From Candidatus Schekmanbacteria bacterium (GTDB lineage: Bacteria > SZUA-182): DNA of 64,000 bases. How positions within the stretch are numbered: position 1 is the first letter of the stretch; each line of letters opens with the position of its first letter. Positions 1-46,103 of this stretch are shown piece by piece. The stretch covers positions 1,779 to 65,778 of the forward strand of contig JACRJN010000131.1 in the NCBI GenBank assembly GCA_016235675.1, read 5' to 3'. The notes under the pieces are model-generated. The model made no database searches and had not been told where the DNA came from. It saw nothing but the letters and a program-made list of their open reading frames with translations. The translations under genes were made by a program, and so were the position numbers.

Positions 1-262
1 AAATAATATCCAGGACGCGCCGGATTTGGTGGTGGAGATAATTTCCGAAAGCAGTGTCTACCGGGATTCGGTAAGAAAAAAGAAGCTTTATGCCAAATTC
101 GGGGTCAAAGAATTTTGGCTGGTCGCTCCTGAAGAAAAAATGATTGAGGTTTATAATTTGGACAATCAGAGGTACCGTTTAAGCCAGACTTGTTTTTATA
201 ATGACAGCCTGGAATCTCAGGTTTTGAAAGGCTTCAGGATGGATTCGAAGGATATTTTTTAA
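1..262 (+). CDS. Uma2 (DUF820) family putative endonuclease, 5'-truncated by the window edge
   Basis: The C-terminal sequence ('VVEIISE..YRDSVRKKKLYAKFGVKEFWLVAPEEKMIEVY') is closely similar to the C-terminus of the complete Uma2 ORF at 4772..5323. Confidence 0.6.
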   Translation, partial: NNIQDAPDLVVEIISESSVYRDSVRKKKLYAKFGVKEFWLVAPEEKMIEVYNLDNQRYRLSQTCFYNDSLESQVLKGFRMDSKDIF

Positions 263-359
263 ATCAATCACTATTCATTTGTCATGGTTTCGGCTTTTCT
301 CAAGCCAAACATCCTAACATGAGTTTTATACTCTTTTCGAATACTCCGGGGAATAAGTA

Positions 360-590
360 ATGAAAAATTTAACACGAATCACATTTGACCCCAATGTGAT
401 GGGCGGGAAGCCTTGTATCCGCGGATTACGCCTCACTGTTGGAACTATTGTCGGGCTGATTGCTACAGGATATTCCACTTCAGACATTTTGAAAGCATAT
501 CCTTATCTGGAAGAAGACGATATTCGCGAAGCACTTAAATACGCCGCCTGGCGAGTTGAAGAAATCGAATTACCCTTGGTACCCATATGA
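360..590 (+). CDS. DUF433 domain protein (antitoxin-like)
   Basis: 76-aa ORF 'FDPNVMGGKPCIRGLRLTV..' typical of DUF433. Its stop overlaps the start of the next ORF in an ATGA arrangement. Confidence 0.55.
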   Translation: MKNLTRITFDPNVMGGKPCIRGLRLTVGTIVGLIATGYSTSDILKAYPYLEEDDIREALKYAAWRVEEIELPLVPI

Positions 591-949
591 AACTGCTGGT
601 TGATATGAATCTTTCTCCTATGTGGATTGAATTTTTCGAACAGCAAGGGTGGCAAGCACTTCATTGGTCAACAGTGGGTAACCCTCGTGCAACTGATATT
701 GCAATCATGGATTGGGCGCGGGAAAATGATTATGCGGTATTCACTCACGATCTTGATTTTGGAGCTTTGTTAGCGGCTACCAGCGCTGACAAACCTAGTG
801 TTATTCAGGTACGTACACAAGATATTATGCCCCATAGTTTAGGCCCCAAATTAGTAAAAATATTACGGCAATATGAATCAGTTCTTAATAATGGGGCATT
901 GCTAACTGTGGACGAAAACAAGTCCAGAGTGCGTATTCTACTTTTTTAG
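587..949 (+). CDS. DUF5615 / PIN-like (Mut7-C) domain protein, putative toxin partner of DUF433
   Basis: 120-aa ORF 'LLVDMNLSP..' with a 4-bp overlap onto the upstream DUF433 gene; the DUF433-DUF5615 pairing is a known arrangement. Confidence 0.55.
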   Translation: MKLLVDMNLSPMWIEFFEQQGWQALHWSTVGNPRATDIAIMDWARENDYAVFTHDLDFGALLAATSADKPSVIQVRTQDIMPHSLGPKLVKILRQYESVLNNGALLTVDENKSRVRILLF

Positions 950-984
950 CAACCAGTAATCACATAATTTCTAGGATTAAACCT

Positions 985-2025
985 ATGATCAACATTTCTT
1001 ACTCCGATTTAAGCTCCGATCCCCGCTATGCCTTTGCAGTCGGGAAAATCAGGGCGCTGGAAACAAACCTGATCACCAATCAGCAGGTCAACCGCCTGCT
1101 GGAGACCAAAGACGCCAACGCTCTTTGGTCGGAATTGGGCAATAACCGGGATTACGAAGCGCATCTGGCCCAATTCTACGATCCCCAGGATTTCGAAGCG
1201 GTTTTAAGCAGCGAATTGAAAAGGGTCTACGCTTTAACCCTGGGGATTTCTGCTGAGCGCACCGCCTTGGAATTACTGGCTTTGCGCCATGATTTCCATA
1301 ACTGCAAGGTTATCTCCAAAGCGTGCTTTTTGGGCGAAGATACGGATAGCAATTTAAGCCCCTTAGGAACGTGTCCCCCCAAAGAATGGGAACAACTCAT
1401 GGTTGCAGAAAAAGAAGCCGGGCTGTGCCGGTTACCTGCCGATTTGATGCAGATTGTCCGTGATGTGCAACAACAGCTTATCGACGAACAAAACTTGCGC
1501 CGGCGGGACATAATCTGGGATCAGGCGCTTTATCAATACCTCTCCCGCCACGCCGAAAAATCGAAAAATCTGTTTGTGCAGACCTGGCTGAAAATTCGCA
1601 TCGACGGCCTCAATTTGCTGACATATGTGCGCTGTATCAGGCAAAAGTCGGATAAGGGATTATTGAAGCTGGCTTTAATTGACAGCGGCACGATAGCTTG
1701 TGAAAAATTGCAAAACGCCTACGAAGGCGGCTTGGAAACGCTGGCCTCCCTGCTCTCCCCTACTCCCTATGCGGGAATGATCCAGGAGGGGCTGGCCTGT
1801 TATAAGCGGGACAACTCCTTTTCCTGTCTGGAAAAACTGTTCGACGATTACGAGATGGAGTTTTTGTCGCAGGCGCGCTATGTCTCTTTGGGGGTGGAGC
1901 CGTTGTTTGCCTATTTATTGGCCAAGGAGACCGAGATCAAGGTCTTGCGCATCCTGCTGGTGGGCAAAATAAACCGCCTGGACAAGACGGAAATCAGTAA
2001 ACGGGTAAGGAGGCTTTATGCCTAA
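985..2025 (+). CDS. atpC: V/A-type ATP synthase subunit C
   Basis: 346 aa. N-terminal 'YAFAVGKIRALETNL' and C-terminal 'EIKVLRILLVGK' match the subunit C (d) family. The gene lies immediately upstream of subunits F, A and B. Confidence 0.7.
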   Translation: MINISYSDLSSDPRYAFAVGKIRALETNLITNQQVNRLLETKDANALWSELGNNRDYEAHLAQFYDPQDFEAVLSSELKRVYALTLGISAERTALELLALRHDFHNCKVISKACFLGEDTDSNLSPLGTCPPKEWEQLMVAEKEAGLCRLPADLMQIVRDVQQQLIDEQNLRRRDIIWDQALYQYLSRHAEKSKNLFVQTWLKIRIDGLNLLTYVRCIRQKSDKGLLKLALIDSGTIACEKLQNAYEGGLETLASLLSPTPYAGMIQEGLACYKRDNSFSCLEKLFDDYEMEFLSQARYVSLGVEPLFAYLLAKETEIKVLRILLVGKINRLDKTEISKRVRRLYA

Positions 2026-2350
2026 GATGGCGATTTTAGGAGAAAGGGACGCGATTTTGGGCTTCAAAGCCGTGGGAGTGAATGTTTTCCCCATCAAAAA
2101 CACCGATGAAGCGGAGGCGGTTTTGCGCAAACTGGCAATGGAAGACTATGCCGCGATCTTTGTCAGCGAGCGTTACGCCCAGGATTTGGAACTGCAAATC
2201 AAGGAGATCGAGCGCTCCGGCGGCATGTTTCCCAGTATCGTAATTATCCCCGGCCCCGGCGTAAATCAAGGGTTGGGAATGAATAAAATCAAAAACATGG
2301 TTGAGAAAGCCCTGGGTATGGCTATTCTTTCCACAGACGAAAAACAATGA
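2018..2350 (+). CDS. atpF: V/A-type ATP synthase subunit F
   Basis: 110 aa, 'MAILGERDAILGFKAVGV', with size and position (between C and A) as expected. An RBS GGAGG precedes the ATG. Confidence 0.7.
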   Translation: MPKMAILGERDAILGFKAVGVNVFPIKNTDEAEAVLRKLAMEDYAAIFVSERYAQDLELQIKEIERSGGMFPSIVIIPGPGVNQGLGMNKIKNMVEKALGMAILSTDEKQ

Positions 2351-2360
2351 GGTTTGACAT

Positions 2361-4112
2361 ATGCAGGCAGGAAAAATAATCAAAGTGGCTGGCCCTTTGG
2401 TGGTTGCCGACGGCATGGTTGACGCCAAGATGTATGACGTGGTCAAAGTCGGCCTTGAGGAACTGATCGGCGAGATTGTGGAAATCAAAGGCGATAAAGC
2501 CTCGATTCAGGTCTACGAGGAAACGGGAGGCATCGGCCCCGGCGATCCGGTGATCACTACCGGTATGCCGCTTAGCGTCGAGTTAGGCCCCGGATTGCTG
2601 CAAAGCATTTACGACGGTATTCAGCGCCCGCTGGAATTGATCTACGGCAAGGTCGGGGATTTGATCACCCGCGGGGTTAACGTCCCCAGCCTGAATCGGG
2701 AAAAGAAATGGGCGTTTACTCCGACTGGCAAAACGGGTGATAAGGTGCAGGCCGGGGATATTTTGGGCACGCTGCCGGAAACCAGGGTTATTACCCATAA
2801 GGTGCTGGTTCCGCCCGGAATCGAGGGAGAGATCGTTAAGATTGCGGCAGGCGGCGAATACACCATTACCGATACCATCGCCCGCATTAAAACCAAAAAC
2901 GGTGAACAGGATATTTGTATGCTGCAAAAGTGGCCGGTGCGTATCAGCCGTCCCTTAAAGGGTAAGCTTTCGCCCAAAGAGCCGCTTTCCACCGGACAGC
3001 GCATTATCGACACCCTCTTTCCCCTGGCCAAGGGCGGAACGGCTTGTGTTCCCGGCCCCTTCGGTTCAGGCAAGACCGTAGTGCAGCATCAGTTGGCCAA
3101 ATGGGCATCTGCCGAGATTGTGGTTTATATCGGCTGCGGCGAGCGCGGCAACGAGATGACCGACGTTTTGATCGAACTGCCGGAGATCGAAGACCCCAGA
3201 ACCGGTGAATCGCTGATGCAGCGCACCGTTTTGATCGCCAACACCTCAAACATGCCGGTGGCCGCCCGTGAAGCCTCGGTCTATACCGGGATCACCCTGG
3301 CCGAATATTACCGCGATATGGGCTACCATGTGGCGCTGATGGCTGATTCCACCTCCCGCTGGGCGGAAGCCTTGCGCGAGATGTCGGGACGTCTGGAAGA
3401 GATGCCCGGAGAAGAAGGCTATCCGGCTTATCTGGCGACCAAGATCGCCGATTTCTACGAGCGCGCCGGTCGGGTCAACACCCTGGGCAGCAACGGCAGA
3501 GAGGGATCGATCAGCGTTATCGGAGCGGTTTCCCCTCCCGGCGGCGACATGTCCGACCCGGTGGTGCAGGCCACCCTCAAGGTGGTTAAGGTCTTCTGGG
3601 GGCTGGACGCCAATTTAGCCTACCGCCGGCATTTCCCCGCCATCAACTGGCTGCAAAGCTATTCACTGTATATGGACAACCTCAAGGATTACCTGACCGG
3701 AGAAATTGCCCGCGACTGGGTCACCATCCGCCAGAAAGCCATGGCGCTGTTACAGAAAGAGGCGGAACTGGAAGAAATCGTACGACTAATCGGCAAGGAC
3801 TCCCTCTCCCCTACCGATCAGCTAACCCTGGAAATCACCAAGATCATCCGCGAGGATTTTCTGCATCAGAACGCCTTCCACGCCCAGGACTCCTACACCT
3901 CGCTGAACAAGCAATATAACTTGCTGAAGCTGATTCTCACCGCCGAAGAACTGTTCCGCTCCGCAGTCGAAGCCAAAATTCCCTTAAAGCGCATCCTCTC
4001 CATCCCGGCCCTGGAAGAAATCGCCAAAGCCAAGTTTATCACCGAAGACAAACCGGAGGAGATCGAAGCCATCGGGCAGAGATTGAGGGAGCAGGTAGGG
4101 GGGTTGAAGTAA
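2361..4112 (+). CDS. atpA: V/A-type ATP synthase catalytic subunit A
   Basis: 583 aa with Walker A 'GPFGSGKT' and conserved A-subunit blocks; an RBS is present. Confidence 0.95.
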   Translation: MQAGKIIKVAGPLVVADGMVDAKMYDVVKVGLEELIGEIVEIKGDKASIQVYEETGGIGPGDPVITTGMPLSVELGPGLLQSIYDGIQRPLELIYGKVGDLITRGVNVPSLNREKKWAFTPTGKTGDKVQAGDILGTLPETRVITHKVLVPPGIEGEIVKIAAGGEYTITDTIARIKTKNGEQDICMLQKWPVRISRPLKGKLSPKEPLSTGQRIIDTLFPLAKGGTACVPGPFGSGKTVVQHQLAKWASAEIVVYIGCGERGNEMTDVLIELPEIEDPRTGESLMQRTVLIANTSNMPVAAREASVYTGITLAEYYRDMGYHVALMADSTSRWAEALREMSGRLEEMPGEEGYPAYLATKIADFYERAGRVNTLGSNGREGSISVIGAVSPPGGDMSDPVVQATLKVVKVFWGLDANLAYRRHFPAINWLQSYSLYMDNLKDYLTGEIARDWVTIRQKAMALLQKEAELEEIVRLIGKDSLSPTDQLTLEITKIIREDFLHQNAFHAQDSYTSLNKQYNLLKLILTAEELFRSAVEAKIPLKRILSIPALEEIAKAKFITEDKPEEIEAIGQRLREQVGGLK

Positions 4113-4172
4113 CATAGGGTAGGGTGGGCTGCGCCCACCATTTTGATGGGCACAGCCCACCCTACAGGCTAC
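4113..4172. repeat. GTAG-headed palindromic element (family J: GTAGGGTGGGCTGCGCCCACC inverted pair)
   Basis: An inverted pair 'tagggtgggctgcgcccacc' / 'ggcacagcccaccctaca' is seen here. Related copies occur at 4648..4745, 11945..12035 and 29222..29246. Confidence 0.8.
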
Positions 4173-4192
4173 ATGAAAAAAAGGGTTGCTTT

Positions 4193-4432
4193 GTGGAGAT
4201 AAATTTTTCTCGTCATGCCAAGAGAAGAGCCAGGTTATACAAAATCCCTGACTCAACAATTCTTAATCTTTTGGAATCGAAAATTTGGAACCAGGGAAAT
4301 CATGAGATTACAAAAATTGTTGCGGGGATTAAATACCCATTGAAAATTGTGTTTAATGTTGAAGACCATATTTTAACTGTAATAACTTGCTATCCTTTAA
4401 AAAAAGGAGCTAAGGGTGAAAGTATATTATGA
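4193..4432 (+). CDS. DUF4258-like protein (putative toxin of a DUF4258/DUF2283 pair)
   Basis: 'FSRHAKRRARLYKIPDSTILNLL' resembles the DUF4258 H-A-x-x-R motif. The tracked ORF begins inside the upstream palindrome, so the first in-frame start after the repeat (GTG at 4193) was chosen. The 3' end overlaps the DUF2283 gene. Confidence 0.45.
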   Translation: MEINFSRHAKRRARLYKIPDSTILNLLESKIWNQGNHEITKIVAGIKYPLKIVFNVEDHILTVITCYPLKKGAKGESIL

Positions 4433-4643
4433 CGACGAAGCAGACGCCCTTTATCTAAAATTGGGAGAAGAAACGCCGGAAGGGGTAATAGAGCTAGCCG
4501 AAGGGGTTAATCTGGACACCACTGCTGAAGATAAGATAGTAGGGATAGAAATTTTGAATGCCTCCAAGAAGATTGATTTAAAAACAATATTATCTTATAC
4601 CCTGGAGTTTGAAAAGGATTTAATAACCCAAGAAGCGGCCTGA
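4416..4643 (+). CDS. DUF2283 domain protein (putative antitoxin partner)
   Basis: 75 aa 'MKVYYDDEADALYLKLGEE' is a characteristic DUF2283 N-terminus. It uses a GTG start with an AAGGAG RBS. Confidence 0.65.
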   Translation: MKVYYDDEADALYLKLGEETPEGVIELAEGVNLDTTAEDKIVGIEILNASKKIDLKTILSYTLEFEKDLITQEAA

Positions 4644-4647
4644 TAGT

Positions 4648-4745
4648 AACGTAGGGTGGGCTGTGCCCACCAAAGGCTAACCAGGGCAATTTGAACAGCG
4701 ACATATGGGCGAAAAACAAAAGGTTGGCAAAGCCCACCCTACATA
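4648..4745. repeat. Family J GTAG palindromic element pair
   Basis: 'gtagggtgggctgtgcccacc' ... 'gcaaagcccaccctacat' form inverted arms around a ~50-nt spacer. Confidence 0.8.
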
Positions 4746-4771
4746 AATAAAACTCAAGGAGGTGAGCACCC

Positions 4772-5323
4772 ATGCAGGGTTTGGCGATAAAGCAAAAAAA
4801 ATATACTTATCAGGACTATTTAAAAACCCCGGACGATATGCGGTATGAACTAATTGAGGGAGATTTAATAATGACACCGGCGCCATATATTCGACACCAA
4901 AGAATTTCCAGTAACTTGTTTTTCAAGATGAGAGATTTCACAAGCACCAATAATTTAGGCGAGGTTTTTTACGCTCCCTGCGATGTCTACTTAGACGATG
5001 AGAATGTTGTTCAGCCGGATATACTCTTCGTTTCCAAGGAGCGTCTGGAAATTATCACGGAAAAGAATATCCAGGGTGCGCCGGATTTGGTAGTGGAAAT
5101 TGTTTCGGAAGGAAATGCTTACCGGGACACCATACAGAAAAAAAGACTATACGCCCGTTTCGGGGTGAAAGAATATTGGATAGTGGCACCGGGGGAAAAG
5201 ATGATCGAACAATATCATTTGAATAAGCAGGGTTACCAATTGATTAGGACTTATTATCATGAGGATCATCTCATATCCCAGGAATTGCAGGATTTCACGA
5301 TTGAATTGAGGGAGGTTTTTTAA
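4772..5323 (+). CDS. Uma2 (DUF820) family putative endonuclease
   Basis: 183 aa with a strong RBS. It is a paralogue of the truncated ORF at 1..262. Confidence 0.7.
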   Translation: MQGLAIKQKKYTYQDYLKTPDDMRYELIEGDLIMTPAPYIRHQRISSNLFFKMRDFTSTNNLGEVFYAPCDVYLDDENVVQPDILFVSKERLEIITEKNIQGAPDLVVEIVSEGNAYRDTIQKKRLYARFGVKEYWIVAPGEKMIEQYHLNKQGYQLIRTYYHEDHLISQELQDFTIELREVF

Positions 5324-5327
5324 AAAA

Positions 5328-5387
5328 TGTAGTTACCTGATTTATCAGGGAACGGCCTGCTGGTACCCGATAAATCGGGTAACTACA
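5328..5387. repeat. Family I REPIN-like element (outer stem GTAGTTACC/GGTAACTAC, inner hairpins CCTGATTTATCAGG and CCCGATAAATCGGG)
   Basis: The palindromic structure is directly visible. A second copy lies at 25116..25173. Confidence 0.85.
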
Positions 5388-5415
5388 AATGGCAGCATAA
5401 CACAGGAGGAATAAA

Positions 5416-6816
5416 ATGCCGAAAGAATACCGAACTGTGGCCTCGGTTTCCGGACCGTTGATTTTAGTGGACAAGGTAGAAAGCATTAAATACGAAGAAC
5501 TGGTGGAAGTGGAACTGCCCGGCGAACAAATCCGTCTGGGCAAGGTACTGGAGGTCTCAGGAAATACCGCCCTGGTGCAGCTTTTCGGTACATCTACCGG
5601 CATCAATATCTATCAGAGCAAAATTCGCTTTCTGGGCAAGGGGATTGAACTGGGGGTTTCTCCCGATTTATTGGGACGGATTTTCGACGGCCTGGGACGC
5701 CCGATCGACAATGGCCCGCGCATTATCCCGGAAAAACGCCTGAACATCAACGGGAATCCGATCAACCCCTATGCCCGCGATTATCCCTCGGAGTTTATCC
5801 AGACCGGTATTTCCACCATCGACGGCCTAAATACACTGGTGCGCGGACAAAAATTGCCCATCTTCTCAGGTGCCGGTCTCCCGCACTCCCAAATGGCGGC
5901 CCAAATCGCCCGTCAATCCAAGGTTTTGGGCAAGGAAGAAGCCTTTGCCGTGGTCTTTGCCGCCATGGGCATCACCTTTGAGGAATACGAGTTTTTCCGC
6001 CAAGATTTCCAGAAATCCGGTGCGCTGGAACGCTCGGTGCTGTTCGTCAATCTGGCCAATGACCCGGCGGTAGAACGCATCGCCACCCCGCGAATGGCCC
6101 TGACCGCCGCTGAATATCTGGCATTTGAGAAGGATATGCACGTTCTGGTTATCTTAACCGATCTGACCAATTATTGCGAAGCCCTGCGCGAGGTTTCCGC
6201 CGCCCGCAAGGAAATACCCGGTCGCCGCGGTTATCCCGGTTACATGTATACCGACCTGTCCACGATTTATGAACGCGCCGGACGCATCAAGGGCAAAAAG
6301 GGATCGATCACCCAGATTCCCATTCTTACCATGCCGGAAGATGACAAAACCCATCCCATCCCGGATTTGACCGGTTATATTACCGAGGGACAAATTATCC
6401 TGGGACGGGCGATGCACCGCAAAGGCATCTATCCCCCAATCGATGTCTTGCCGTGTCTTTCCCGCTTGCGGGATAAAGGCATCGGCGAGGGCAAGACCAG
6501 GGAAGACCACGCCGGCTGGTCGAATCAATTGTTTGCCGCCTATGCCAGGGGTAAAGAGTCTGAAGAATTGGCGGTTATATTGGGTGAATCGGCTCTATCG
6601 GCAGCCGATAAAACCTTCCTTAAATTCGCCCTGGAATTTGAGCGGCGGTTTGTACAGCAAGGGGCCTATGAAGACCGGGCTATCGAGGAAACTTTGGCTA
6701 TCGGCTGGGAATTAATGGCGGCACTTCCGAAAGCCGAACTCAAACGGGTGAAAGAGGATCATATCGCTAAATATATGCCGGCGGGGAAAGAATTAGGCTT
6801 GAGGCTTGAGGCCTGA
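5416..6816 (+). CDS. atpB: V/A-type ATP synthase subunit B
   Basis: 466 aa with conserved regulatory B-subunit blocks, preceded by a strong RBS (CAGGAGG). Confidence 0.95.
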
Positions 6817-6927
6817 GGCTTGAGTAATGAGATTTGAGGTAAAATCACAGGCAGGATGCCTGTGCTACCGTAGGGCGAATTTGTATTCGCCCTCTTTCCC
6901 TCAAGCCTCAAGTCTCAAGCCTTTTTA
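6796..6927. repeat. Composite palindrome: GAGGCTTGAGGCCTGAGGCTTGAG heptamer-like arms enclosing a family C hairpin
   Basis: Arms at 6800..6830 and 6895..6925 are reverse complements. The internal 'cacaggcaggatgcctgtgctacc' is a family C hairpin. The element sits between the convergent atpB and PHP genes and is a likely terminator. Confidence 0.75.
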
Positions 6928-7571
6928 TTACAGCGATGAACCAAATTTCGGGCATTAACCCAAATTTGCTCTATCTGGGACTCGGTCAGCCCTGCGCCGA
7001 TGGCTACTTTAATGGCTTGTTCCTGCGAAATGAGGTCATCCGGTTCATGAGAGTCGGTATCAAGTATTAAAGAAGCATCTGATTTTGCGGCCAACTTGGC
7101 CACATGGCCGTTTGTCAGGGAATGTCCCTTACGGCTGGTAATTTCCAGAAAAATATGACGCTTTGCCGCCAAACGGACGTCTTCTTCGCTGATCAAACCC
7201 GGATGCGCCAATATATCGATGTCGGATTTTAAGGCATAATGATTGGTGCCAGGAACAACCGGCTCGGCTATGGTTTCCCCATGGACAACGATAATTTTAG
7301 CGCCCAGGGAGCGGGCACGGTACGCCAGATCGGGGATGAGCTTAGGCGGAACATGCGTTAATTCTATGCCGGGGATAGCGGTTATTTCCCAATGCTGATT
7401 AGCGGTTTGACAGGCTTGAATAATACGCGGGATTACAAATTCCAGGTTGGACGGATCGGCATGATCGGTCAAAGCGATGGCTTTATAGCCTTTAACGACG
7501 GCGTGGCGTATCAATTCCATCGGAAGGAGAACGCCGTCACTGAACAAAGAATGGGTATGAAAATCAAACAT
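6915..7571 (-). CDS. PHP-domain (histidinol-phosphatase-like) metal-dependent phosphoesterase
   Basis: 'MFDFHTHSLFSDG' and 'ALTDHAD' are PHP-domain motifs. Confidence 0.7.
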   Translation of the reverse strand: MFDFHTHSLFSDGVLLPMELIRHAVVKGYKAIALTDHADPSNLEFVIPRIIQACQTANQHWEITAIPGIELTHVPPKLIPDLAYRARSLGAKIIVVHGETIAEPVVPGTNHYALKSDIDILAHPGLISEEDVRLAAKRHIFLEITSRKGHSLTNGHVAKLAAKSDASLILDTDSHEPDDLISQEQAIKVAIGAGLTESQIEQIWVNARNLVHRCNKKA

Positions 7572-7573
7572 GT

Positions 7574-7933
7574 CTATTGAGCTAACTTAACGGTAACATT
7601 TTCAAAACGAGTCATCAATTCTTTCGCTTCCTGCATAAAACTATTCAATAAAGCGTCGCTGCAACATTGCTTACTTCTCAATTCATCACATAATTTACTG
7701 TTATCTAAATACAAGGTGATATTATTCGCGCCCATCCCCTTAGCCCTTCTTAAGGCAACTAAAAGCGCACAGGAATCCTGAATATCTTTGTTAGCCAAGG
7801 TAGCATTTTCCCGGATAATGCTCAAAAGGTTATCTTCATCATCTTTAACCATTACTTCAACGTAGCCGCGTGAATAGGGTTTTATCTGCTTTTGGCCATT
7901 TACAAATAAAATTAAGTGATTAAATCCCGCCAT
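7574..7933 (-). CDS. Hypothetical protein, possibly a degenerate RNase H-like fold
   Basis: 'DSCALLVALRRA..ITLYLDNS' resembles the TNNxAEL..TDS blocks of RNase H, but the catalytic residues are substituted. The ATG at 7933 was chosen. Confidence 0.3.
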   Translation of the reverse strand: MAGFNHLILFVNGQKQIKPYSRGYVEVMVKDDEDNLLSIIRENATLANKDIQDSCALLVALRRAKGMGANNITLYLDNSKLCDELRSKQCCSDALLNSFMQEAKELMTRFENVTVKLAQ

Positions 7934-8045
7934 AGCCCTCACCGCCTTTTTAAACCCAATTAAATTATAGCATCTTACTATTTAAAATGCAATTGAAGTA
8001 GTTTGTAAAATGTATCGCAGATAACACAAAGAAAAATAATATTTT

Positions 8046-8305
8046 GGTAGCGTTCTCAATAAGAGACCTAAAGCGTCAAAAGCGAGGCAGCCTTATCGCC
8101 GAAGCAATCTCATGTGCACGCATGGAGATTGCTTCGCTTCGCTCGCAATGACGCTTCAGGTCTGCGGTATTTCTACGCTACCAATAATTTTACACTAAAC
8201 AGTCATGCTCCTTCAGAACGACACAAAACATGAAAACATTCCCCCCTGCCGTAGTGCCGGGGCTTTAGCCCCGGTAGTTCAGCCCTGAAGGGCTGGAACT
8301 ACGAA
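8046..8305. repeat. Composite intergenic element: family D long hairpin (GTCATTGCGAG../GAAGCAATCTC) plus a family B'-like GTAG element
   Basis: 'gcgtcattgcgag..gaagcaatctc-loop-gagattgcttc..ctcgcaatgacgc' is flanked by 'ggtagcgttctc'/'tctacgctacc'. It is followed by 'gtagtgccggggctttagccccggtagttcagccctgaagggctggaactacg'. Confidence 0.8.
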
Positions 8306-8335
8306 ACTACGAAACACAAACAGGCATTTAGCCTT

Positions 8336-9049
8336 TTATTTCTTCGTCTCCCCCTTTGCCGGTTCCATTTTTTTAATCCACTGTTTTATTTCTTCAGCTT
8401 GGGGAGAATTCGGTTCCAACTCTAAAAATTTTTGAAAATAAAAAACCGCTTTTTCCGGCTGGGATAATTTCTTGGCGTAGATTGTCCCCAGGTTAAAATA
8501 GGCATCGGAGGAATCGTACACCTCTAATACTTTTGAGTAATATTCGACGGCTTTTGCATAATCGCCGCTTACGGCTGCAATATTCCCTTGTTTCAGTAGT
8601 TGCATCATTGTATCGAGGGTTTCCTGACTCAAATCGTTTATCATCCGGCTTGTTTTCGCGGATTGAGGGTTATTGGTCGACAAATCATAAATTTTTTCTT
8701 TATCCAGGTATAATTTTATTTCCTTAATCCATTGGCGTACATGAGGAGTATCTGTATCGAAGGGTTTTAACTGGAGAAATTTTTCATAATAAAAAAGTGC
8801 CCTTTTGCGATCCTGGATATTAATCTCATAAGTCACCCCCAAATTAAACACGGCATCGATCGAATTATAACCGACAAAGGCTTTTTCATAGGCAGCGACG
8901 GCCTCCTGATAATTACCCTCTTCGCAAGCTTTATTCCCCTCTAAAACAAGCTGCGTCCCCGGATCATAACTTTCTTGTGCCGAAGCGATAGAATTTATAA
9001 GTAATATCGGGAAAAAGACGATAAATAAAATTGACGCTTTAAATCTCAT
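8336..9049 (-). CDS. Secreted TPR-repeat protein
   Basis: Carries an N-terminal signal peptide and repeated 'AxxYxxKALxxxP' TPR-like units. Confidence 0.65.
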   Translation of the reverse strand: MRFKASILFIVFFPILLINSIASAQESYDPGTQLVLEGNKACEEGNYQEAVAAYEKAFVGYNSIDAVFNLGVTYEINIQDRKRALFYYEKFLQLKPFDTDTPHVRQWIKEIKLYLDKEKIYDLSTNNPQSAKTSRMINDLSQETLDTMMQLLKQGNIAAVSGDYAKAVEYYSKVLEVYDSSDAYFNLGTIYAKKLSQPEKAVFYFQKFLELEPNSPQAEEIKQWIKKMEPAKGETKK

Positions 9050-9099
9050 TGCTAAACTCCACTTAGTACGCGATTTTATAAATAACTAAGATTATTTTT

Positions 9100-9290
9100 T
9101 AAGTGTCATTGCGAGCTTAAGCGAAGCAATCTCTACCCATGCGTCTGAGATTGCTTCGGCGATAAGGCTGCCTCGCTTTTGACAGAATAAACTCAGTTAG
9201 TTATAAAATCGTGTATTAGTTACTTCCGAGATACGAGGTATGAAAACTAACTCTTCCGTATCTCGTACCTCGTATCTCGTATCTCGGTAT
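9100..9290. repeat. Composite: family D hairpin followed by a GAGATACGAGGTACGAGATACG heptamer-array hairpin
   Basis: 9105..9185 holds cattgcgag/gaagcaatctc palindromes. 9222..9290 reads 'ccgagatacgaggta..cgtatctcgtacctcgtatctcgtatctcgg'. Confidence 0.8.
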
Positions 9291-10016
9291 TTACAGCTTC
9301 GGCTGACGTAATTTAAACGCCGTCCCCTTATAAAAATGCCCCTTTTGCCGCTTCAAATTTTCCTCTGCGGCGACTTTCCATCCTGAGGCATTTCCGGCTT
9401 GTTCATGCATTGGCGCCAGACTTAAAAATTTCTGATAAAAAAAGACCGCTTTCTGCCAGTAGTTTAAATCATAATCATAAACTACGGCCAGGTTAAAACA
9501 AGCCGCCGCGGAATTATTTTTAGTCAGCGTTTCCATATATGCGCTGACCGCCTTCCGATATTCTTTTTTCAGCAAATATTGGTTGCCGGAAACCAGGTTC
9601 ACGTCACCAACATCGGTCATAATCAATTCCTGCGCCTCCGGGCGTTTTAATTGCGGATCAATCGCCTGATCGGGATAAACCTTTTGTTTTACCTCTATAA
9701 GCCAGGCTTTCACCTGAGGGACATCCGCCGAATTCGGCTCCAGTTCCAGAAATTGCTGATAAAGGTGCATGGCCTTGGCATAAAAATCGAGCCGGTGATG
9801 ATAAGTGATGGCCAGATTATAAACGGCATCGGAGGATTTCTTAAGCTGCAAAGCCTCTTTATAGGAACGGGCGGCTTTTTCATATTGACCGCTTTCAAAA
9901 AAATTATTGCCCTGCAAAACCAAATCGGGAACATCCAGGACTTTACCGCCTGCATGGGGCACCAGACAAAAAATAAAGCAGACGACTAAAATCAGCCATC
10001 GGGAAAGATATTGCAC
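9291..10016 (-). CDS. Secreted TPR-repeat protein
   Basis: Has a signal peptide and TPR-like repeats; it is a paralogue of the ORF at 8336..9049. Confidence 0.65.
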   Translation of the reverse strand: MQYLSRWLILVVCFIFCLVPHAGGKVLDVPDLVLQGNNFFESGQYEKAARSYKEALQLKKSSDAVYNLAITYHHRLDFYAKAMHLYQQFLELEPNSADVPQVKAWLIEVKQKVYPDQAIDPQLKRPEAQELIMTDVGDVNLVSGNQYLLKKEYRKAVSAYMETLTKNNSAAACFNLAVVYDYDLNYWQKAVFFYQKFLSLAPMHEQAGNASGWKVAAEENLKRQKGHFYKGTAFKLRQPKL

Positions 10017-10815: not shown

Positions 10816-11862
10816 TTACTTATTCTGAAATGCCGGGAAATTGGAGAGATCGAAAATAGCATAAAGCGACTGGACGGAAGCCGCCGTTTCTTTGGTTAAA
10901 TCCAACTGATCGAGATTTTCCACGATTCTGAAAAACCATTTGCTGATTCTGATCTTATCGGGACGATCTTCTTCGGCCAATTCATCTTTGACCTTATCCA
11001 GGTTGAGAATTGTCTTTTCCTTTTTGCCCCCATCTAAGCGGGAATCATATTTCAAGAGCATTATTACCTTGTTCACGGCCTCTATTTGTAATTTTCGCTC
11101 ATTGAAAGAGGTACCGATCTTTATATCCAAATTAGCCGCGGGATTGATCTTGGCCGTGTCTTCTAAAGTATAGGGGGCGAGGGTTTGAAACCCAGGGTTT
11201 TTCACTGGAAGCGGGGTATCTTGTTGCAGAAAACTGGCTATGGAGGATATTCCCATGGGATGGGCGGATAACTCAGACAATACCTTTTCGTAAAGTTCTT
11301 TGCTCTCATCCGATATATTATAGCTTTTTAAGATAAAATCCGTTCTTACCTTCATGGTGGTAAGTAACAAATCGTGTTCCTTTTTATTGATAATCACCGG
11401 TAGATCGGAAAAATCGGCGCCCCGGCGGATTCTCTCCAGATAATCCTTAAGATCGATTCTAACCGTCTGCGGGCTGACGGTAATGCCTTCATCGGCCAAA
11501 GTGAGTTTAAAACCGATACGCTGGGGGACAGAATTATCTACGGAAAAACGCACTTTGTAGCCATGCAGACGGGAGTAATTTTCAAAACCGATTAATAAGT
11601 CATGAAACAGCGGTCTTTGATCATCCGGCAGATTTATCGAGATATAGCCGCCCAGGTTTGTGCCCACCATCGGTTCTCTACTCTGGGAAAGCTGCATTTC
11701 ATACATTTTCTTTTGGCAGACTAATTGTTCTTTGATCAATTCCTCCCGCTTTTTCAATTCATCCTTGCGATCATACCTCCAAAGCCAGATGCAAAAAATC
11801 GCCATCAGTAAAGACACCAAAGAAATAATGTAGGGGACGGAAATTGTAATCGATTCAAACAT
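10816..11862 (-). CDS. Hypothetical membrane-anchored coiled-coil protein
   Basis: An N-terminal TM helix is followed by a charged coiled-coil segment. An ATG with an AGAGG RBS sits at 11862; the tracked upstream start lies inside the heptamer repeat. Confidence 0.45.
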   Translation of the reverse strand: MFESITISVPYIISLVSLLMAIFCIWLWRYDRKDELKKREELIKEQLVCQKKMYEMQLSQSREPMVGTNLGGYISINLPDDQRPLFHDLLIGFENYSRLHGYKVRFSVDNSVPQRIGFKLTLADEGITVSPQTVRIDLKDYLERIRRGADFSDLPVIINKKEHDLLLTTMKVRTDFILKSYNISDESKELYEKVLSELSAHPMGISSIASFLQQDTPLPVKNPGFQTLAPYTLEDTAKINPAANLDIKIGTSFNERKLQIEAVNKVIMLLKYDSRLDGGKKEKTILNLDKVKDELAEEDRPDKIRISKWFFRIVENLDQLDLTKETAASVQSLYAIFDLSNFPAFQNK

Positions 11863-11892: not shown

Positions 11893-12102
11893 CACAAAGC
11901 ACACGAAGATCACGAAGAAAAAATAAATAGTTTAATTAAATATCATAAATAGTAGGGTGGGCTGCGCCCACCATTACCTCAAACTCATGAATATTCTTAA
12001 AATGGTGGGCGCAACCCACCCTACAAACTGCATTACCGTAAAAAAATAGCATTTGTAATTCTTCGTGTGCTTCGTGCGCTTCGTGGTGAAAAGAAATTTA
12101 CC
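11893..12102. repeat. Family E composite palindrome (CACGAAG heptamer arrays flanking a family J GGTGGGC palindrome)
   Basis: 'cacaaagcacacgaagatcacgaagaaaaa' at 11893.. is mirrored by 'ttcttcgtgtgcttcgtgcgcttcgtggtg' at 12058... Between them lies a 'tagggtgggctgcgcccacc...ggtgggcgcaacccaccctaca' palindrome. Confidence 0.8.
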
Positions 12103-12124: not shown

Positions 12125-12880
12125 TTATTGGCTGACCGTCACATCGACCAAATTCCCTTGCTGGATACGAAAGCCTGAGGGCGGGGATTGATCGATCACG
12201 ATACCGGGTGAAATCCCCTGATAGATTATCTGCCCGACCTTGCCTAAGCTGGCATTCATGATTTTCAAGCGGCGTGTCACCGAATCCACCTGCTGTCCGA
12301 TAAAATCCGGCATAAGATAATTCTCAGTCATCGGGCCTTTACTGACCAATAGATTGACTTTCGTGCCCCGTTTGACGCCGAATCCCGCCGGAGGCGATTG
12401 CCCGATAATCTCCTGAGATGGCGCGTAATTATAAACCCTGGCCAAAGTCCCGATGCCTAAACCTTCCTTGTGCAGAACAGACTGCGCCTGATGCCAGGCT
12501 GTCCTCAATAAAGTGGGGATTTTTACCAATTGCGATCCCCGGCTTAAAATAATCCGTACTTTACGTCCGGCTTTGATGGTACTGCCGGCCGGCGGATGTT
12601 GAGCGATTATGTAATGGCTGGGAACTCCGGCATTAAATTCCTGCTCCTCGATTTCCAGGCGCAAATTTAATTGATTCAGCTTTTCCAAAGCATCGACGAT
12701 ATTTTGCCCTTCCAGGGCGGGGACTGTAACCTCTGTGCCTTTGATAAAAAAGCGCAGGCTTAAAAAGGCGCTCGACAATCCCAAAACAATCAATCCGAAA
12801 AAAATGAACAGTAATCGTCCCCAGGAACTCTTGGTCAACTTAAACTCCTTAAGGTTAGAGATAGTTGCAAAAGTCCCCAA
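12125..12880 (-). CDS. PASTA domain-containing membrane protein
   Basis: An N-terminal TM helix is followed by three PASTA-like repeats ('..GxxVxxxxSxG..'). Confidence 0.65.
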   Translation of the reverse strand: MGTFATISNLKEFKLTKSSWGRLLFIFFGLIVLGLSSAFLSLRFFIKGTEVTVPALEGQNIVDALEKLNQLNLRLEIEEQEFNAGVPSHYIIAQHPPAGSTIKAGRKVRIILSRGSQLVKIPTLLRTAWHQAQSVLHKEGLGIGTLARVYNYAPSQEIIGQSPPAGFGVKRGTKVNLLVSKGPMTENYLMPDFIGQQVDSVTRRLKIMNASLGKVGQIIYQGISPGIVIDQSPPSGFRIQQGNLVDVTVSQ

Positions 12881-12892
12881 AATGTCATTCCC

Positions 12893-12978
12893 GCAATGAT
12901 TTTAAGCGGGAATCTGGTTTTAACTGCTTGAAAAACCATATCCCCGATAAAAACATTCGGGGATGACAGATAGTTTTG
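12893..12978. repeat. Family G element (GTCATTCCCG..CGGGAAT and CATATCCCCGATAAA..CGGGGATGACAG hairpins)
   Basis: A second copy at 28262..28372 is nearly identical. Confidence 0.8.
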
Positions 12979-21589: not shown

Positions 21590-21828
21590 TATTAAGACGT
21601 AGCGCAGGGCTTTAGCCCCAATACTGTTCCCCTAACGTAGCGCAGACCTTTAGGTCTGCTCCGGAGTGCTCACAAAGCCACCCCATAAGCAGGGATAGAA
21701 GCCCTGCGCTACGTCTTAAGTGAACGGTATTGGCTTTAGCCCTGCTTCCGGACACACATCAAACCCGGTAGCCGGTAGCAGACCTAAAGGTCTGCACTAC
21801 GTTAGGGGAACAGTAAAGGGGCGGCTAT
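21590..21828. repeat. Two interleaved family A REPIN-like elements
   Basis: The GTAGCGCAGGGCTTTAGCCC / GCAGACCTTTAGGTCTGC units are repeated twice with CTTAAGTGAACAG outer repeats. Confidence 0.8.
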
Positions 21829-22093
21829 GACTAAATCAGCTTTATTCTCTTATCTTGAAGGATATAAGCTGGCTGATAAAATCATTAAAAAGGAAAAAAA
21901 ACAGCGGCTTTCTCAAATGACGTTTGAAGAATCCTTGCTTGAGTTTAATAACCTTTGCCTAACCTGGGAATCAGTTTCCAACAAAGAAGGAATGGATAAT
22001 TTGGAAAAGCGAAAAATTACCTTCCTTATCGAACAAAGAGCTCGCTTAGATAAAGCCGGCAGCCGGAAAGTGAAAAATGAATCAATACGCTAA
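21827..22093 (+). CDS. Hypothetical small protein, putative partner of the downstream nucleotidyltransferase
   Basis: 88 aa; its stop overlaps the next ORF by 17 nt. Confidence 0.35.
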   Translation: MTKSALFSYLEGYKLADKIIKKEKKQRLSQMTFEESLLEFNNLCLTWESVSNKEGMDNLEKRKITFLIEQRARLDKAGSRKVKNESIR

Positions 22094-22652
22094 AGCTATC
22101 GATGAATTGCATGAATTTTTTGACCGGGAGGGAATATCTTATGCCATTATTGGAGGCATTGCTCTACAATATTGGGGAGAGCCTCGTTTTACCAGAGATA
22201 TAGACGTCACCGTTCTGGTTGATTTAGGTAAAGATGAAATAATCCTGCAAAAAATTCTTTCTGTATTCACGCCCCGCATCTCTGATGCCTTGAAATTTGC
22301 CCTGCAAAATCGTGTTTGTTTGGTTAGAAGCCGGGATGGGATCGAAATAGACATTTCTCTGGGTATTCCCGGATACGAAGAGAAAATGATGGGGCGTACG
22401 GTAGAATGTAATCTGGGCGGCAGCTATAATGTTAAGATTTGCTCGGCGGAAGACCTGATCATTCATAAAGCCGTCGCCGGAAGACCGCAGGATTTAGCTG
22501 ATATTGAGAGCATAATAATGCGCCAGGGTGAAAAATTGGATGAAGCATATATCCGTTTTTGGTTGGATGAGTTTTCTCTCTTGCTTGAAACCAAAGAAGT
22601 ATTGGAGCGGTTCGAAAATCCCTGGCGGCGGTTGCTTGGGGAAGATGAATAA
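22077..22652 (+). CDS. Nucleotidyltransferase-fold protein (pol-beta superfamily)
   Basis: 'IIGGIALQYWGEPRFTRDIDVTV' matches the hG[GS]...DxD nucleotidyltransferase motif. Confidence 0.5.
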   Translation: MNQYAKAIDELHEFFDREGISYAIIGGIALQYWGEPRFTRDIDVTVLVDLGKDEIILQKILSVFTPRISDALKFALQNRVCLVRSRDGIEIDISLGIPGYEEKMMGRTVECNLGGSYNVKICSAEDLIIHKAVAGRPQDLADIESIIMRQGEKLDEAYIRFWLDEFSLLLETKEVLERFENPWRRLLGEDE

Positions 22653-25115: not shown

Positions 25116-25173
25116 TGTAGTTACCTGATTTATCAGGTACGACCCGTGGTACCCGATAAATCGGGTAACTACA
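25116..25173. repeat. Family I REPIN-like element
   Basis: This is a near-identical copy of the element at 5328..5387. Confidence 0.85.
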
Positions 25174-29084: not shown

Positions 29085-29246
29085 GAACGGTAGCACAGGC
29101 ATCTTGCCTGTGATGTGGGCAACGCCCACACAAAAACGGTGCAATGACTGGAAGTTGTTGGGTAAATCGAAAGCTTCCATTCTATGCCGCAACACACAGG
29201 CTGGAAGCCTGTGCTACCCTACCCAATGGTGGGCACAGCCCACCCT
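29085..29246. repeat. Family C inverted pair plus family J palindrome
   Basis: 'ggtagcacaggcatcttgcctgtg' ... 'cacaggctggaagcctgtgctacc' is followed by 'ggtgggcacagcccaccctac'. Confidence 0.75.
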
Positions 29247-29850
29247 ACTTTTTCCAATAATCCGCCTTGGCCAGATCCTCTTCTCTTGATATTAAAGCCG
29301 GAAAAGTCAGCAGCAATATCTTGCAATCCAGAAGAAAGGACAGGTGGCGGATATATTCTATATCGTATTCGATTCTTTTATCCCAATCAATGGATTTCCG
29401 TCCGCTGACCTGAGCCAGACCGCTAATTCCCGGCCTTATAAGCAGCCTTTGCCTTTGATGGGGCGTATATTGATCCACCTGATATTTTAACGTCGGACGC
29501 GGCCCGATGATGCTCATATCGCCGCGCAAGATATTGATCCCCTGGGGCAATTCATCCAACCCGCTGACGCGCAACCATTGGCCGATGCGGGTCACCCTGG
29601 GGTCGTTTTTCTCCACCAGTATCCCCGCTCCCATTTTGGCGGCATTGGGCAGCATGGTGCGGAATTTGTATAAATCAAATAACTTGCCGTCTTTGCCTAC
29701 CCGCTCCTGGCTGAAAAATACCGTCCCTTTAGAATCCAATTTTATCAGCAGGGCGATGATTAGCATGGGAATAAGCATCAGCGACAAAATGACCAGGATG
29801 AAAATTATGTCTAACGCCCGCTTAAAATATTTGGAATAAAGCCCGTTCAT
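29245..29850 (-). CDS. Undecaprenyl-phosphate sugar phosphotransferase (PglC/WbaP C-terminal-domain type)
   Basis: 'MNGLYSKYFKRALDII' plus one TM helix and the conserved bacterial sugar transferase domain. The tracked upstream start lies in the repeat. Confidence 0.8.
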   Translation of the reverse strand: MNGLYSKYFKRALDIIFILVILSLMLIPMLIIALLIKLDSKGTVFFSQERVGKDGKLFDLYKFRTMLPNAAKMGAGILVEKNDPRVTRIGQWLRVSGLDELPQGINILRGDMSIIGPRPTLKYQVDQYTPHQRQRLLIRPGISGLAQVSGRKSIDWDKRIEYDIEYIRHLSFLLDCKILLLTFPALISREEDLAKADYWKK

Positions 29851-45866: not shown

Positions 45867-46103
45867 ATGATTATTAAAAAAAATATTCAAAAGGAAACAT
45901 CGTTGGAATTGCCTTGGCATTTATTAGAAAAAGCCCATCTTAAGGGGAAAATAAATATTATTGTGGAAGAAAATGAAATCCTGATTAAAAAACAAACTAA
46001 AAAATCTAAGGTTGTCGATGAAATGATCGGTCTGGGAAAGGGTATTTTTAGTGAAAACTCGCTAACTCTTCAGAAAAAAATTCGGGAGGATTGGAAACTG
46101 TGA
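45867..46103 (+). CDS. Putative antitoxin (VapB-like) of a PIN-domain TA pair
   Basis: 78 aa; its 3' end overlaps the PIN gene. No strong domain signature was recognised. Confidence 0.4.
   Translation: MIIKKNIQKETSLELPWHLLEKAHLKGKINIIVEENEILIKKQTKKSKVVDEMIGLGKGIFSENSLTLQKKIREDWKL

Follow-up and report, generated by a model that had tools for sequence, protein, structure and literature searches.

Putative selfish and defence-type gene modules at two junctions of a V/A-ATPase operon in Candidatus Schekmanbacteria

Toxin-antitoxin and DUF820 genes have been described within a bioenergetic operon before. In Synechocystis sp. PCC 6803, the hox genes are arranged as hoxEF-sll1222(DUF820)-hoxUY-sll1225/ssl2420(PIN toxin-antitoxin pair)-hoxH. 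The sll1225/ssl2420 pair lacks a separate transcription start and belongs to a longer transcription unit, and seven further strains also have toxin-antitoxin or DUF820 genes close to hox genes (Kopfmann et al. 2016, PMC4963859). Uma2 has been described as a selfish element that proliferates (Feder and Bujnicki 2005, PMC551604) and also as a likely solo toxin (Makarova et al. 2009, PMC2701414). Its active site is a PD-EXX-K variant with a conserved His, represented by H43, D83, E111 and K127 in all3650 (PMC551604). DUF4258 is a putative toxin family of the RelE/ParE superfamily of type II toxin-antitoxin modules (mBio 2025, PMC11980606). GTAG REPs are palindromes of 20-40 bp in which one end bears a GTAG tag that stays unpaired; most of them sit between ORFs of the same direction, and transcription is plausible for many (Di Nocera et al. 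2013, PMC3733652).

Here we describe a V/A-ATPase operon from the phylum Candidatus Schekmanbacteria that resembles the hox operon, in that a multi-subunit bioenergetic operon holds same-strand Uma2/DUF820 genes and type II toxin-antitoxin-like pairs at two junctions. It differs from hox in the machine encoded and in the phylum, and in the pairs themselves, which here are DUF4258-like/DUF2283 and DUF433/DUF5615. Each junction has both a Uma2 gene and a pair, the modules are set apart by REP dimers, and the relatives include operons with empty sites, different cargo or remnants. We regard the V-ATPase case as a new and clear instance of what is known from cyanobacteria.

The window, by which we mean the whole 64-kb stretch of DNA analysed, opens within this operon, and the atp genes described next lie on its plus strand. 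The gene atpC (V-ATPase subunit C/d, AC39; 985-2025; PF01992, E=1.2e-52) is followed by atpF (2018-2350; PF01990, E=6.8e-19) and by atpA (2361-4112), which encodes an intact catalytic A subunit of 583 aa with four Pfam domains at full coverage and has a GC3 of 70%. The intact atpB (5416-6816; 466 aa) has the full Pfam V/A-ATPase domain set and its own ribosome-binding site (ACACAGGAGG), which is also present in relatives; its product is 100% identical to MBI5789067.1 of Candidatus Schekmanbacteria. The gene calls thus place the end of atpA at 4112 and the start of atpB at 5416, as a preliminary description of the locus had it. The intervening 1303 bp hold three intact same-strand genes separated by three palindromes. 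An 88-aa ORF on the minus strand (4507-4773) crosses the second palindrome and the DUF2283 gene at its 3' end; it looks spurious and was set aside.

The first two genes of the gap are small and co-directional, and their reading frames overlap by 17 nt. The downstream gene, a candidate antitoxin (4416-4643, plus strand), encodes a DUF2283 (YuzE-like) protein that covers positions 1-49 of the 49 in PF10049 (E=2e-16; 60.3 bits against a cut-off of 23). The upstream, toxin-like gene (4193-4432, plus strand; 79 aa; GC 33%) is more divergent, and its product alone scores 15.3 bits against PF14076 (E=0.025), where the curated cut-off is 25 bits. It has 18 homologues of 74-83 aa, which share the motif FSRHAKRRxxLY. 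PF14076 is matched by 19/19 members of this family at E<=0.1 (best E=8.7e-8), and two of the 18 homologues bear a precomputed DUF4258 domain. The AF2 model of the protein (pLDDT 90.1) has the topology E-H-H-E-E-E, and its ten best Foldseek matches in the PDB are all YoeB, YafQ, RelE, HP0894, ParE or HigB2, at weak scores (E 0.016-0.13, TM 0.43-0.60); PDB sequence searches with the DUF4258-like family and with DUF2283 gave chance-level matches only. Together, the family profile and the modelled fold support the predicted assignment of the product as a divergent DUF4258 protein of the RelE/ParE superfamily. The preliminary description had proposed an overlapping DUF4258-like/DUF2283 gene pair with GTG starts, and this reading holds, outright for DUF2283 by Pfam and by way of homologue family and fold for DUF4258; the homologues of the toxin-like protein begin at the position of GTG 4193, and the DUF2283 gene starts with GTG at 4416.

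Like the DUF4258 toxins surveyed in PMC11980606, the upstream gene would encode a small basic protein with a beta-alpha-alpha-beta-beta-beta, RelE-like fold, and its reading frame runs into that of a small partner gene downstream; the DUF4258-MqsA fusions of that survey likewise have the toxin first. The differences are that the protein here falls below the Pfam cut-off and that its partner, DUF2283, is absent from the antitoxins of the survey. The two families had also been called a known couple. The Athalassotoga plasmid pATS2 carries an annotated pair of DUF4258 and DUF2283 genes that overlap by 4 nt, but the pairing is otherwise weakly documented. The two homologue lists are linked by two coincidences of contig size and are of unequal length, with 1482 homologues for DUF2283 and 18 for the DUF4258-like protein. 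On Thermus plasmids, DUF2283 has other upstream neighbours; a tblastn search of plasmids with the DUF4258-like protein gave no match, and we found no paper naming both DUF4258 and DUF2283. The best 120 of the 1482 DUF2283 homologues are 83-94% identical and come from several phyla. Gene context, profile and fold lead us to predict that the two genes form a type II toxin-antitoxin-like pair.

The third gene of the gap (4772-5323, plus strand) encodes a Uma2/DUF820 protein of 183 aa that covers positions 2-169 of the 172 in PF05685 (E=5.6e-36; 124.1 bits against a cut-off of 27). It is preceded by a strong ribosome-binding site, AAGGAGG, so that the Uma2 family call and the strong RBS of the preliminary description are both borne out. 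The protein also matches PDB 6okh (E=6.5e-46) and the PADLOC candidate system PDC-S03 (E=1.5e-47). The residues H42, P82-D83, E109-I-V and K123/K124, read from the translation, fit the active-site motif of the family, and the product is thus a predicted PD-EXX-K nuclease. To our knowledge, the Uma2 family has no member of demonstrated function. The gene resembles known Uma2/COG4636/DUF820 members in its full-length match, its intact His/PD/EXX/K motif, the presence of several paralogues per genome and a scattered distribution of the selfish-element kind. It differs in that its host lies outside the cyanobacteria and Deinococcus-Thermus, and in its place inside an essential operon.

The three palindromes of the gap are dimers of GTAG-tagged REPs (REPINs). 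REPIN J1 (4119-4165) begins 7 nt past the atpA stop codon and is made of two inverted REPs (GTAG plus GGTGGGCnnnGCCCACC), 3 nt apart. Between the DUF4258-like/DUF2283 pair and the Uma2 gene sits REPIN J2 (4651-4672 and 4722-4742), two inverted REPs of the same family with a 49-nt spacer. REPIN I (5328-5387), two inverted GTAG-tagged REPs of another family (TGTAGTTACCYGATTTATCRGG), stops 28 nt short of atpB; the unit of this family is (T)GTAG plus TTACCYGATTTATCRGG, and its second copy in the window lies at 25116-25173. The predicted RNA hairpins have energies of -39.6 kcal/mol (z=-6.3) for J1, -41.9 kcal/mol (z=-4.9) for J2 and -34.5 kcal/mol (z=-7.8) for I, within a range of -34 to -46 kcal/mol (z = -4.9 to -9.8) for these palindromes. 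The preliminary description had already assigned them to families J and I, and the multi-copy pattern matches are far above expectation: across the window, family J has 4 loci with 11 pattern matches (0.03 expected) and family I has 2 loci with 4 pattern matches (0 expected). All of these loci lie between ORFs, and three of the six REP dimers are concentrated in the A-B spacer. Beyond the organism, family J is absent from the 176 compared loci except for this organism's own contig (L161). Rfam returned sub-threshold microRNA-hairpin matches only, which we took as generic hairpins. The elements share with published GTAG REPs and REPINs (PMC3733652; Bertels and Rainey, PMC3337134) the GC-rich palindrome with unpaired GTAG, the inverted dimers, the multiple copies and the location between unidirectional ORFs. 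They differ from these in setting, with four J and two I loci in 64 kb and no RAYT seen in the window.

The genome carries a second, analogous insertion at the atpE-atpC junction. The window begins inside it, with the 3' part of a second Uma2 gene (2-262, plus strand; Pfam Uma2, E=4.7e-14), the first gene of this insertion; atpE lies just outside the window. This Uma2 is 62% identical in amino acids and 71% in nucleotides to the one between atpA and atpB. It is followed on the plus strand by a DUF433 antitoxin-type gene (360-590; PF04255, E=2e-24), which overlaps the next gene by 4 nt, and by a DUF5615/PIN-like toxin-type gene (587-949; PF18480, E=2.4e-24; PIN_10, E=2.6e-4). A Logan contig of this organism (L170) that is 100% identical over window positions 1-3155 has the order atpE-[Uma2, DUF433, DUF5615]-atpC, and the palindrome adjoining atpE in it has no other copy in the 64-kb window. 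PADLOC profiles matched neither this pair nor the DUF4258-like/DUF2283 pair. Two more toxin-antitoxin pairs lie elsewhere in the window.

Is the A-B segment inserted DNA or an ancestral part of the operon? Exact look-ups gave matches for Uma2 and DUF433 and none for AtpA and AtpB, and close relatives were found by an AtpB protein search. The comparison set comprises eight related operons, all from metagenomes, with AtpA 70-81% identical to that of the window; genome and metagenome scans with AtpA, whose listed matches are at most 67% identical, served as background for adjacency. In this background, the A-B gap is 9-87 nt in 149/149 distant V-ATPase loci among the matches listed, in keeping with the earlier statement that atpA and atpB are normally adjacent. 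Long match ranges had suggested atpA inteins in some loci; these are cross-matches to atpB instead. Among relatives that have both genes, the closest operon (L163; AtpA 81% and AtpB 88% identical) has an A-B spacer of 63 nt, and L171 has an empty site of 142 nt, so that empty sites occur in both clades and the segment is not common to the relatives. The outgroup L168 (Nitrospinota) has a spacer of 176 nt with no ORF. The GC3 of the cargo (29-47%) is below that of the atp genes (60-70%), which fits a foreign origin. This comparison shows that the 1.3-kb segment is an insertion and not an ancestral part of the operon. The preliminary description had called it a cassette; the inserted nature of the DNA stands, but there are three or more separate modules in it, set apart by REP dimers.

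At the same two junctions, the relatives carry different cargo or decaying remnants of cargo. Between atpA and atpB, L165 has DUF6036 and a 59-aa gene, L166 has MNT and a remnant, L167 has HEPN, MNT and a remnant, and L172 has ten ORFs over 4.9 kb; L162 has a RAYT and DUF5677 upstream of atpB. Between atpE and atpC, L166 carries DUF4258 and a zinc-ribbon protein, and L167 carries MNT and HEPN. The window's clade and the other clade have unrelated cargo families, and within the latter an array (HEPN, MNT, DUF6036 and a small gene) is shared and eroding. PIN also occurs among the relatives' cargo at the two junctions. In the outgroup L168, one palindromic repeat is found at E-C, A-B and B-D and past atpD, which marks these as the junctions open to mobile DNA. 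Relatives also have toxin-antitoxin modules past the next gene, and since the genomes are rich in toxin-antitoxin genes elsewhere, the operon may be no hotter than other co-directional spacers.

We consider it likely that independent modules of a selfish or defence type have accreted in the A-B segment, at one of the few operon junctions that tolerate foreign DNA, and that the segment is probably co-transcribed with the operon. The modules would be a pair of a RelE/ParE-fold, DUF4258-family toxin and DUF2283, a solo Uma2/DUF820 gene and three GTAG REP dimers. The cargo and atpB would be read through from the operon promoter, with the REP hairpins acting as RNA stabilisers or attenuators and not as full terminators, and atpB would be translated off its own retained ribosome-binding site; a dependence of atpB on read-through is plausible. 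Insertions may survive selection only when they are co-oriented and lie at uncoupled junctions, and addictive toxin-antitoxin modules may withstand deletion. The conserved flanking atp genes could serve as homology arms through which spacer contents are swapped among related strains, and such exchange would turn the junctions into hot spots whose contents change over time. We found no recombinase, target-site duplication or other insertion signature at the cassette, so the mechanism of insertion is pure inference.

The transcription of atpB could be arranged otherwise. Toxin-antitoxin modules usually have their own autoregulated promoters, as is established for type II modules, so atpB could be driven from within the cassette, by a promoter of the pair or by one ahead of the Uma2 gene, with REPIN J1 ending an atpC-F-A transcript. 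The sequence offers candidates for such separate units: sigma-70-like hexamers occur at 4513-4540, 4998-5025 and 5233-5260, and the inner hairpin of J1 (4123-4139), followed by ATTTTGAT, is the top terminator-like plus-strand match in the cassette and could end some transcripts. However, neither promoter-like sites (10 against 8.4±3.2) nor plus-strand terminator-like sites (14 against 9.7±3.1) in the A-B region are in excess of shuffled sequences. The cargo ORFs lie on the operon strand in 28 of 28 cases, as expected were read-through important, and no separate transcription start serves the toxin-antitoxin pair embedded in hox (PMC4963859). We judge separate transcription units to be unlikely.

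The modules may, alternatively, have been domesticated. They could stabilise the operon against deletion, a role raised for hox by Kopfmann et al. (PMC4963859), or tie V-ATPase expression or stoichiometry to stress through the RNase activity of the toxin. All three genes in the window are intact, and the A-B array of the second clade is partly kept across lineages with AtpA only 77% identical. Yet the cargo varies among genomes, the sites are empty in L163 and L171, remnants speak of decay, and no cargo family is linked to ATPase function; we find domestication improbable.

We give similarly little credence to site-specific capture, REP/RAYT-mediated or other, in which the REP dimers would be landing sites, the junctions true attachment sites and the genes cargo brought in by an HUH transposase acting on single strands or by an element that targets REPs. 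Every module in the window is bounded by REP dimers, GTAG-type palindromes lie at cargo borders in L166 and L172, and the empty spacer of L163 weakly resembles a degenerate J-type REP pair. L162 has a RAYT in the same place, and this Y1 transposase gene has inverted REPs of its own on either side, as in REPIN/RAYT systems. However, no RAYT was matched within the 64-kb window, REP families differ among genomes (J being confined, among the 176 loci, to this organism's own contig), and the REPs may have colonised new spacers once the genes were in. We also know of no precedent for RAYTs moving protein-coding cargo.

Other mobile elements fit poorly. An insertion sequence or transposon was rejected, as 4113-5415 has no transposase domain and the repeat search found no flanking direct duplication besides REP units. 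Integron arrays and CALINs are similar in their co-oriented, apparently promoterless small genes, many of them toxin-antitoxin, and in the imperfect palindromes between genes and the expression from an upstream promoter. They differ from this locus, which has no integrase, GTAG-tagged REPs in place of GTTRRRY/RYYYAAC core sites, and repeat families that vary among genomes; all three ORFs of the cassette were assigned to families other than integrase, and we rejected this reading too. A speculative extension, to which we attach little weight, is that E-C and A-B act as integrase-less capture platforms for promoterless defence or toxin-antitoxin cassettes, perhaps recruited by REP/RAYT single-strand machinery or by recombination in the atp flanks, and that their expression rides on the strong transcription of a housekeeping operon. 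If true, the platforms would be a functional analogue of the integron within an essential gene cluster, possibly linking defence or growth arrest to the energy machinery.

A chimeric join is conceivable in a metagenome-assembled genome, in which repeats such as REPs can cause misjoins, but we hold it to be very improbable, as two separately assembled Logan contigs (SRR12113407), which may share reads with the MAG, span atpA-cassette-atpB (window 3137-5976) and atpE-insertion-atpC-atpF-atpA at 100% identity, and six other assemblies have analogous architecture.

The case shows that a highly conserved, stoichiometry-sensitive operon can accommodate selfish cargo in kilobase amounts, with one of the relatives reaching 4.9 kb and ten genes, on condition that the cargo sits at particular junctions and in sense orientation. 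The hox observation is thereby extended to another machine and another phylum, which suggests a general rule for where toxin-antitoxin and Uma2 genes settle. The divergent DUF4258 toxin-like protein with its DUF2283 partner, and DUF2283 proteins 83-94% identical across phyla, are candidates for experiments. The set of sites also bears on whether embedded modules ride host transcription. With its occupied, empty and decaying members, it provides a small natural time series for the gain, persistence and loss of such modules.

The V/A-type ATPase operon lies on the plus strand, and the window begins inside it. The genes atpC (985-2025), atpF (2018-2350), atpA (2361-4112) and atpB (5416-6816) each carry their full Pfam domain complement, and the AtpB protein matches MBI5789067.1, encoded on a 65,938-nt contig of a Candidatus Schekmanbacteria MAG, at 100% identity. 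A preliminary description had the operon split between atpA and atpB by palindrome-bounded selfish or defence cargo, and its coordinates for both genes and the cassette match our gene calls exactly. Downstream of atpA come, in order, a family J palindrome (4119-4165), a DUF4258-like ORF (GTG at 4193, end at 4432), an overlapping DUF2283 ORF (4416-4643), a split family J palindrome (4651-4672 and 4722-4742), a Uma2 ORF with an AAGGAGG site in front (4772-5323), and a second type of palindrome, family I (5328-5387); all three ORFs are on the plus strand. The last palindrome ends 28 nt before atpB, which has its own ACACAGGAGG ribosome-binding site. Beyond atpB, two minus-strand genes (6915-7942), one with a PHP domain and one of the RVT_3 (RNase H-like) type, converge on its end, and the synteny there is unlike that of every relative examined. 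An atpD gene is missing after atpB both here and in all members of the two related clades, and the 64 kb contain no copy at all; in a Nitrospinota outgroup operon (L168) it follows after a 193-nt spacer. The D subunit gene of the window's and related clades' operons must sit elsewhere.

Is the segment between atpA and atpB an insertion or an ancestral part of the operon? The adjacency expected in relatives was borne out: genome and metagenome scans gave, among the matches listed, 149 V-ATPase loci with AtpA at 59-67% identity, and in all of them atpA and atpB are projected to lie 9-87 nt apart, with no insertion. Closer relatives, retrieved through AtpB (81-90% identical), include empty sites, with E-C-F-A-B order and a 63-nt spacer in L163/L164 and a 142-nt spacer in L171. 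The cargo genes also differ in composition (GC 33-41%, GC3 29-47%) from the atp genes (GC 49-56%, GC3 60-70%). Because of these short spacers, empty sites and cargo composition, the segment is an insertion. An assembly chimera is argued against by two independently assembled Logan contigs, which agree fully (100% identity) with the window over the two operon interruptions. The split of the operon by inserted cargo is confirmed, and the interpretation first given to it is supported.

The second interruption, absent from the preliminary description, lies between atpE and atpC in the same genome. A Logan contig from the same organism (L170) overlaps the window and extends upstream, where it reads atpK-atpE-[palindrome, Uma2, DUF433, DUF5615/PIN]-atpC (L170 1-2117). 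This gene order identifies window positions 2-949, a Uma2 fragment and a DUF433/DUF5615 pair, as an insertion at E|C, a junction where the ends of the two atp genes share 4 nt in L163. The Uma2 copies at the two sites are paralogues, with 62% protein and 71% DNA identity.

The Uma2 and DUF2283 assignments hold, both passing Pfam curated cut-offs over their full length (E=5.6e-36 and E=2e-16). Uma2 also matches the solved family structure 6okh (E=6.5e-46) and PDC-S03, a PADLOC candidate single-gene defence system (E=1.5e-47), and it keeps the His / PD / EXX / K active-site variant defined for the family (PMC551604) as H42, D83, E109 and K123/124. The DUF4258 assignment is less direct. Alone, the ORF scores 15.3 bits, below the cut-off of 25. 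However, it has 18 homologues (74-83 aa, 51-69% identity) with starts matching GTG 4193 and 21 invariant residues in common, FSRHAKRR among them, and all 19 sequences match PF14076 (best E 8.7e-8). An AlphaFold model (pLDDT 90) has RelE-type topology, and its best ten PDB matches are all RelE/ParE-superfamily toxins, with modest scores; DUF4258 is itself listed as a RelE/ParE-superfamily family whose activity is not known (PMC11980606). On this combined evidence the label "DUF4258-like toxin" stands.

The claim that DUF4258 and DUF2283 form a known couple fared less well. One annotated overlapping pair, on an Athalassotoga plasmid, and two contig-length coincidences between the two homologue lists speak for it, but other genes adjoin DUF2283 on Thermus plasmids, and the case is weak overall. 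Our literature search found no paper naming both families. Homologues of the DUF2283 protein number 1482 at E<=1e-5, of which the best 120 are 83-94% identical and carry Planctomycetota/Brocadiia, Nitrospirota, Deltaproteobacteria, Campylobacterota, Tectomicrobia and Schekmanbacteria labels, a cross-phylum conservation far above that of AtpA or AtpB. For the upstream partner the number is only 18, at 51-69% identity, which suggests that the DUF2283 gene is highly mobile and pairs with varied partners.

In both palindrome families a GTAG tag, unpaired at the 5' end, precedes a GC-rich hairpin (J, GTAG-GGTGGGCnnnGCCCACC; I, GTAG-TTACCYGATTTATCRGG). They are arranged as inverted dimers and have folding energies of -34 to -46 kcal/mol. 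Further copies of J (11952-12024, 29224-29248) and I (25116-25173) occupy spacers between co-directional minus-strand ORFs. Their recurrence is far above chance, and the atpA-atpB spacer houses three of the window's six REP dimers. Both families bear the hallmarks of GTAG-tagged REPs (REPINs; PMC3733652). Rfam has no family for either, and no RAYT (REP-associated Y1 transposase) is visible within the 64-kb window.

Relatives carry other cargo at the same two junctions, a pattern likewise absent from the preliminary description. In trees of AtpA and AtpB the loci fall into two clades, one with the window, L162 and L163 and the other with L165, L166, L167, L171 and L172, each including empty and occupied members. 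In L162, whose AtpB is the most similar among the relatives, at least 2.6 kb directly upstream of atpB holds a RAYT with its own REPs and DUF5677 (the contig lacks atpA and does not cover E|C); inverted GTAGGTTGGGTT REPs flank this RAYT gene, and REP dimers lie to either side of it (381-2596). In the second clade, A|B holds a DUF6036 nucleotidyltransferase and a 59-aa gene in L165 (E|C empty); MNT, a remnant of the 59-aa gene and a GTAG palindrome in L166 (E|C with DUF4258 and a zinc-ribbon protein); and HEPN, MNT and a 5' remnant of DUF6036 in L167 (E|C with MNT and HEPN). L172 has at A|B a same-strand island of ten ORFs over 4.9 kb (5129-10000), including PIN, HEPN, MNT, DUF6036 and a 214-aa ORF made of 33-nt tandem repeats; no atpE was seen upstream of its atpC. 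All 28 of 28 cargo ORFs are on the operon strand. Because cargo is unrelated between the clades, while the second has in common an array of HEPN, MNT, DUF6036 and a small gene (45-80% identity) that erodes differently, the junction pattern combines several independent colonisations with prolonged retention and decay.

Cargo genes are lacking in the outgroup L168, where one palindromic repeat (ACAACCCCCTTATTCCCCCTTAACAAAGGGGGATAGGGGGTTGT) sits at E|C, at A|B, at B|D and behind atpD (6561-6626, 9843-9908, 11440-11505, 12865-12930), the first two copies within a 155-nt element 95% identical between sites. Its position marks precisely these points as the places that tolerate mobile DNA. Genes at C|F and F|A overlap or almost abut except in L172, where the genome-specific MITE-like repeat bordering the island takes up a 430-nt F|A spacer as well. 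Toxin-antitoxin modules abound in these genomes, not only at atp junctions, and in relatives some lie past the gene following atpB. The window itself has two further toxin-antitoxin-like pairs between co-directional genes: an 88-aa gene with an AbiEii/DUF6036 nucleotidyltransferase (21827-22652) and a 78-aa gene paired with a PIN-domain VapC (45867-46531).

The comparisons show insertion with intact genes, co-oriented cargo, repeated occupancy of the same junctions and cargo turnover. The modules would be transcribed together with the operon, and REP hairpins might work as RNA stabilisers or attenuators; a weak T-tract occurs only at the inner hairpin of the 4119-4165 palindrome, and terminator-like and promoter-like counts in the region show no excess over shuffles. 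The retained ribosome-binding site would serve atpB translation. Selection may purge antisense or coupling-breaking insertions, toxin-antitoxin addiction may slow loss, and conserved atp flanks could permit exchange of spacer content via homologous recombination. A search of the insertion for a recombinase, an attC-like core or a target duplication came up empty. A dedicated capture platform hitch-hiking on operon transcription seems quite improbable.

The nearest known parallel is the hox operon of Synechocystis 6803, hoxEF-sll1222(DUF820)-hoxUY-sll1225/ssl2420(PIN toxin-antitoxin pair)-hoxH, where the sll1225/ssl2420 pair has no transcription start of its own and belongs to a longer unit; seven other cyanobacteria have toxin-antitoxin or DUF820 genes near hox genes (PMC4963859). 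One proposal takes Uma2/COG4636 for a selfish element that proliferates (PMC551604), another for a likely solo toxin (PMC2701414). Our literature search found no paper linking toxin-antitoxin modules with a V-type ATPase operon. The present case is the same kind of thing, though in a different operon and a different phylum, and it adds to the hox precedent a comparative series of sites that are empty, differently filled or in decay.
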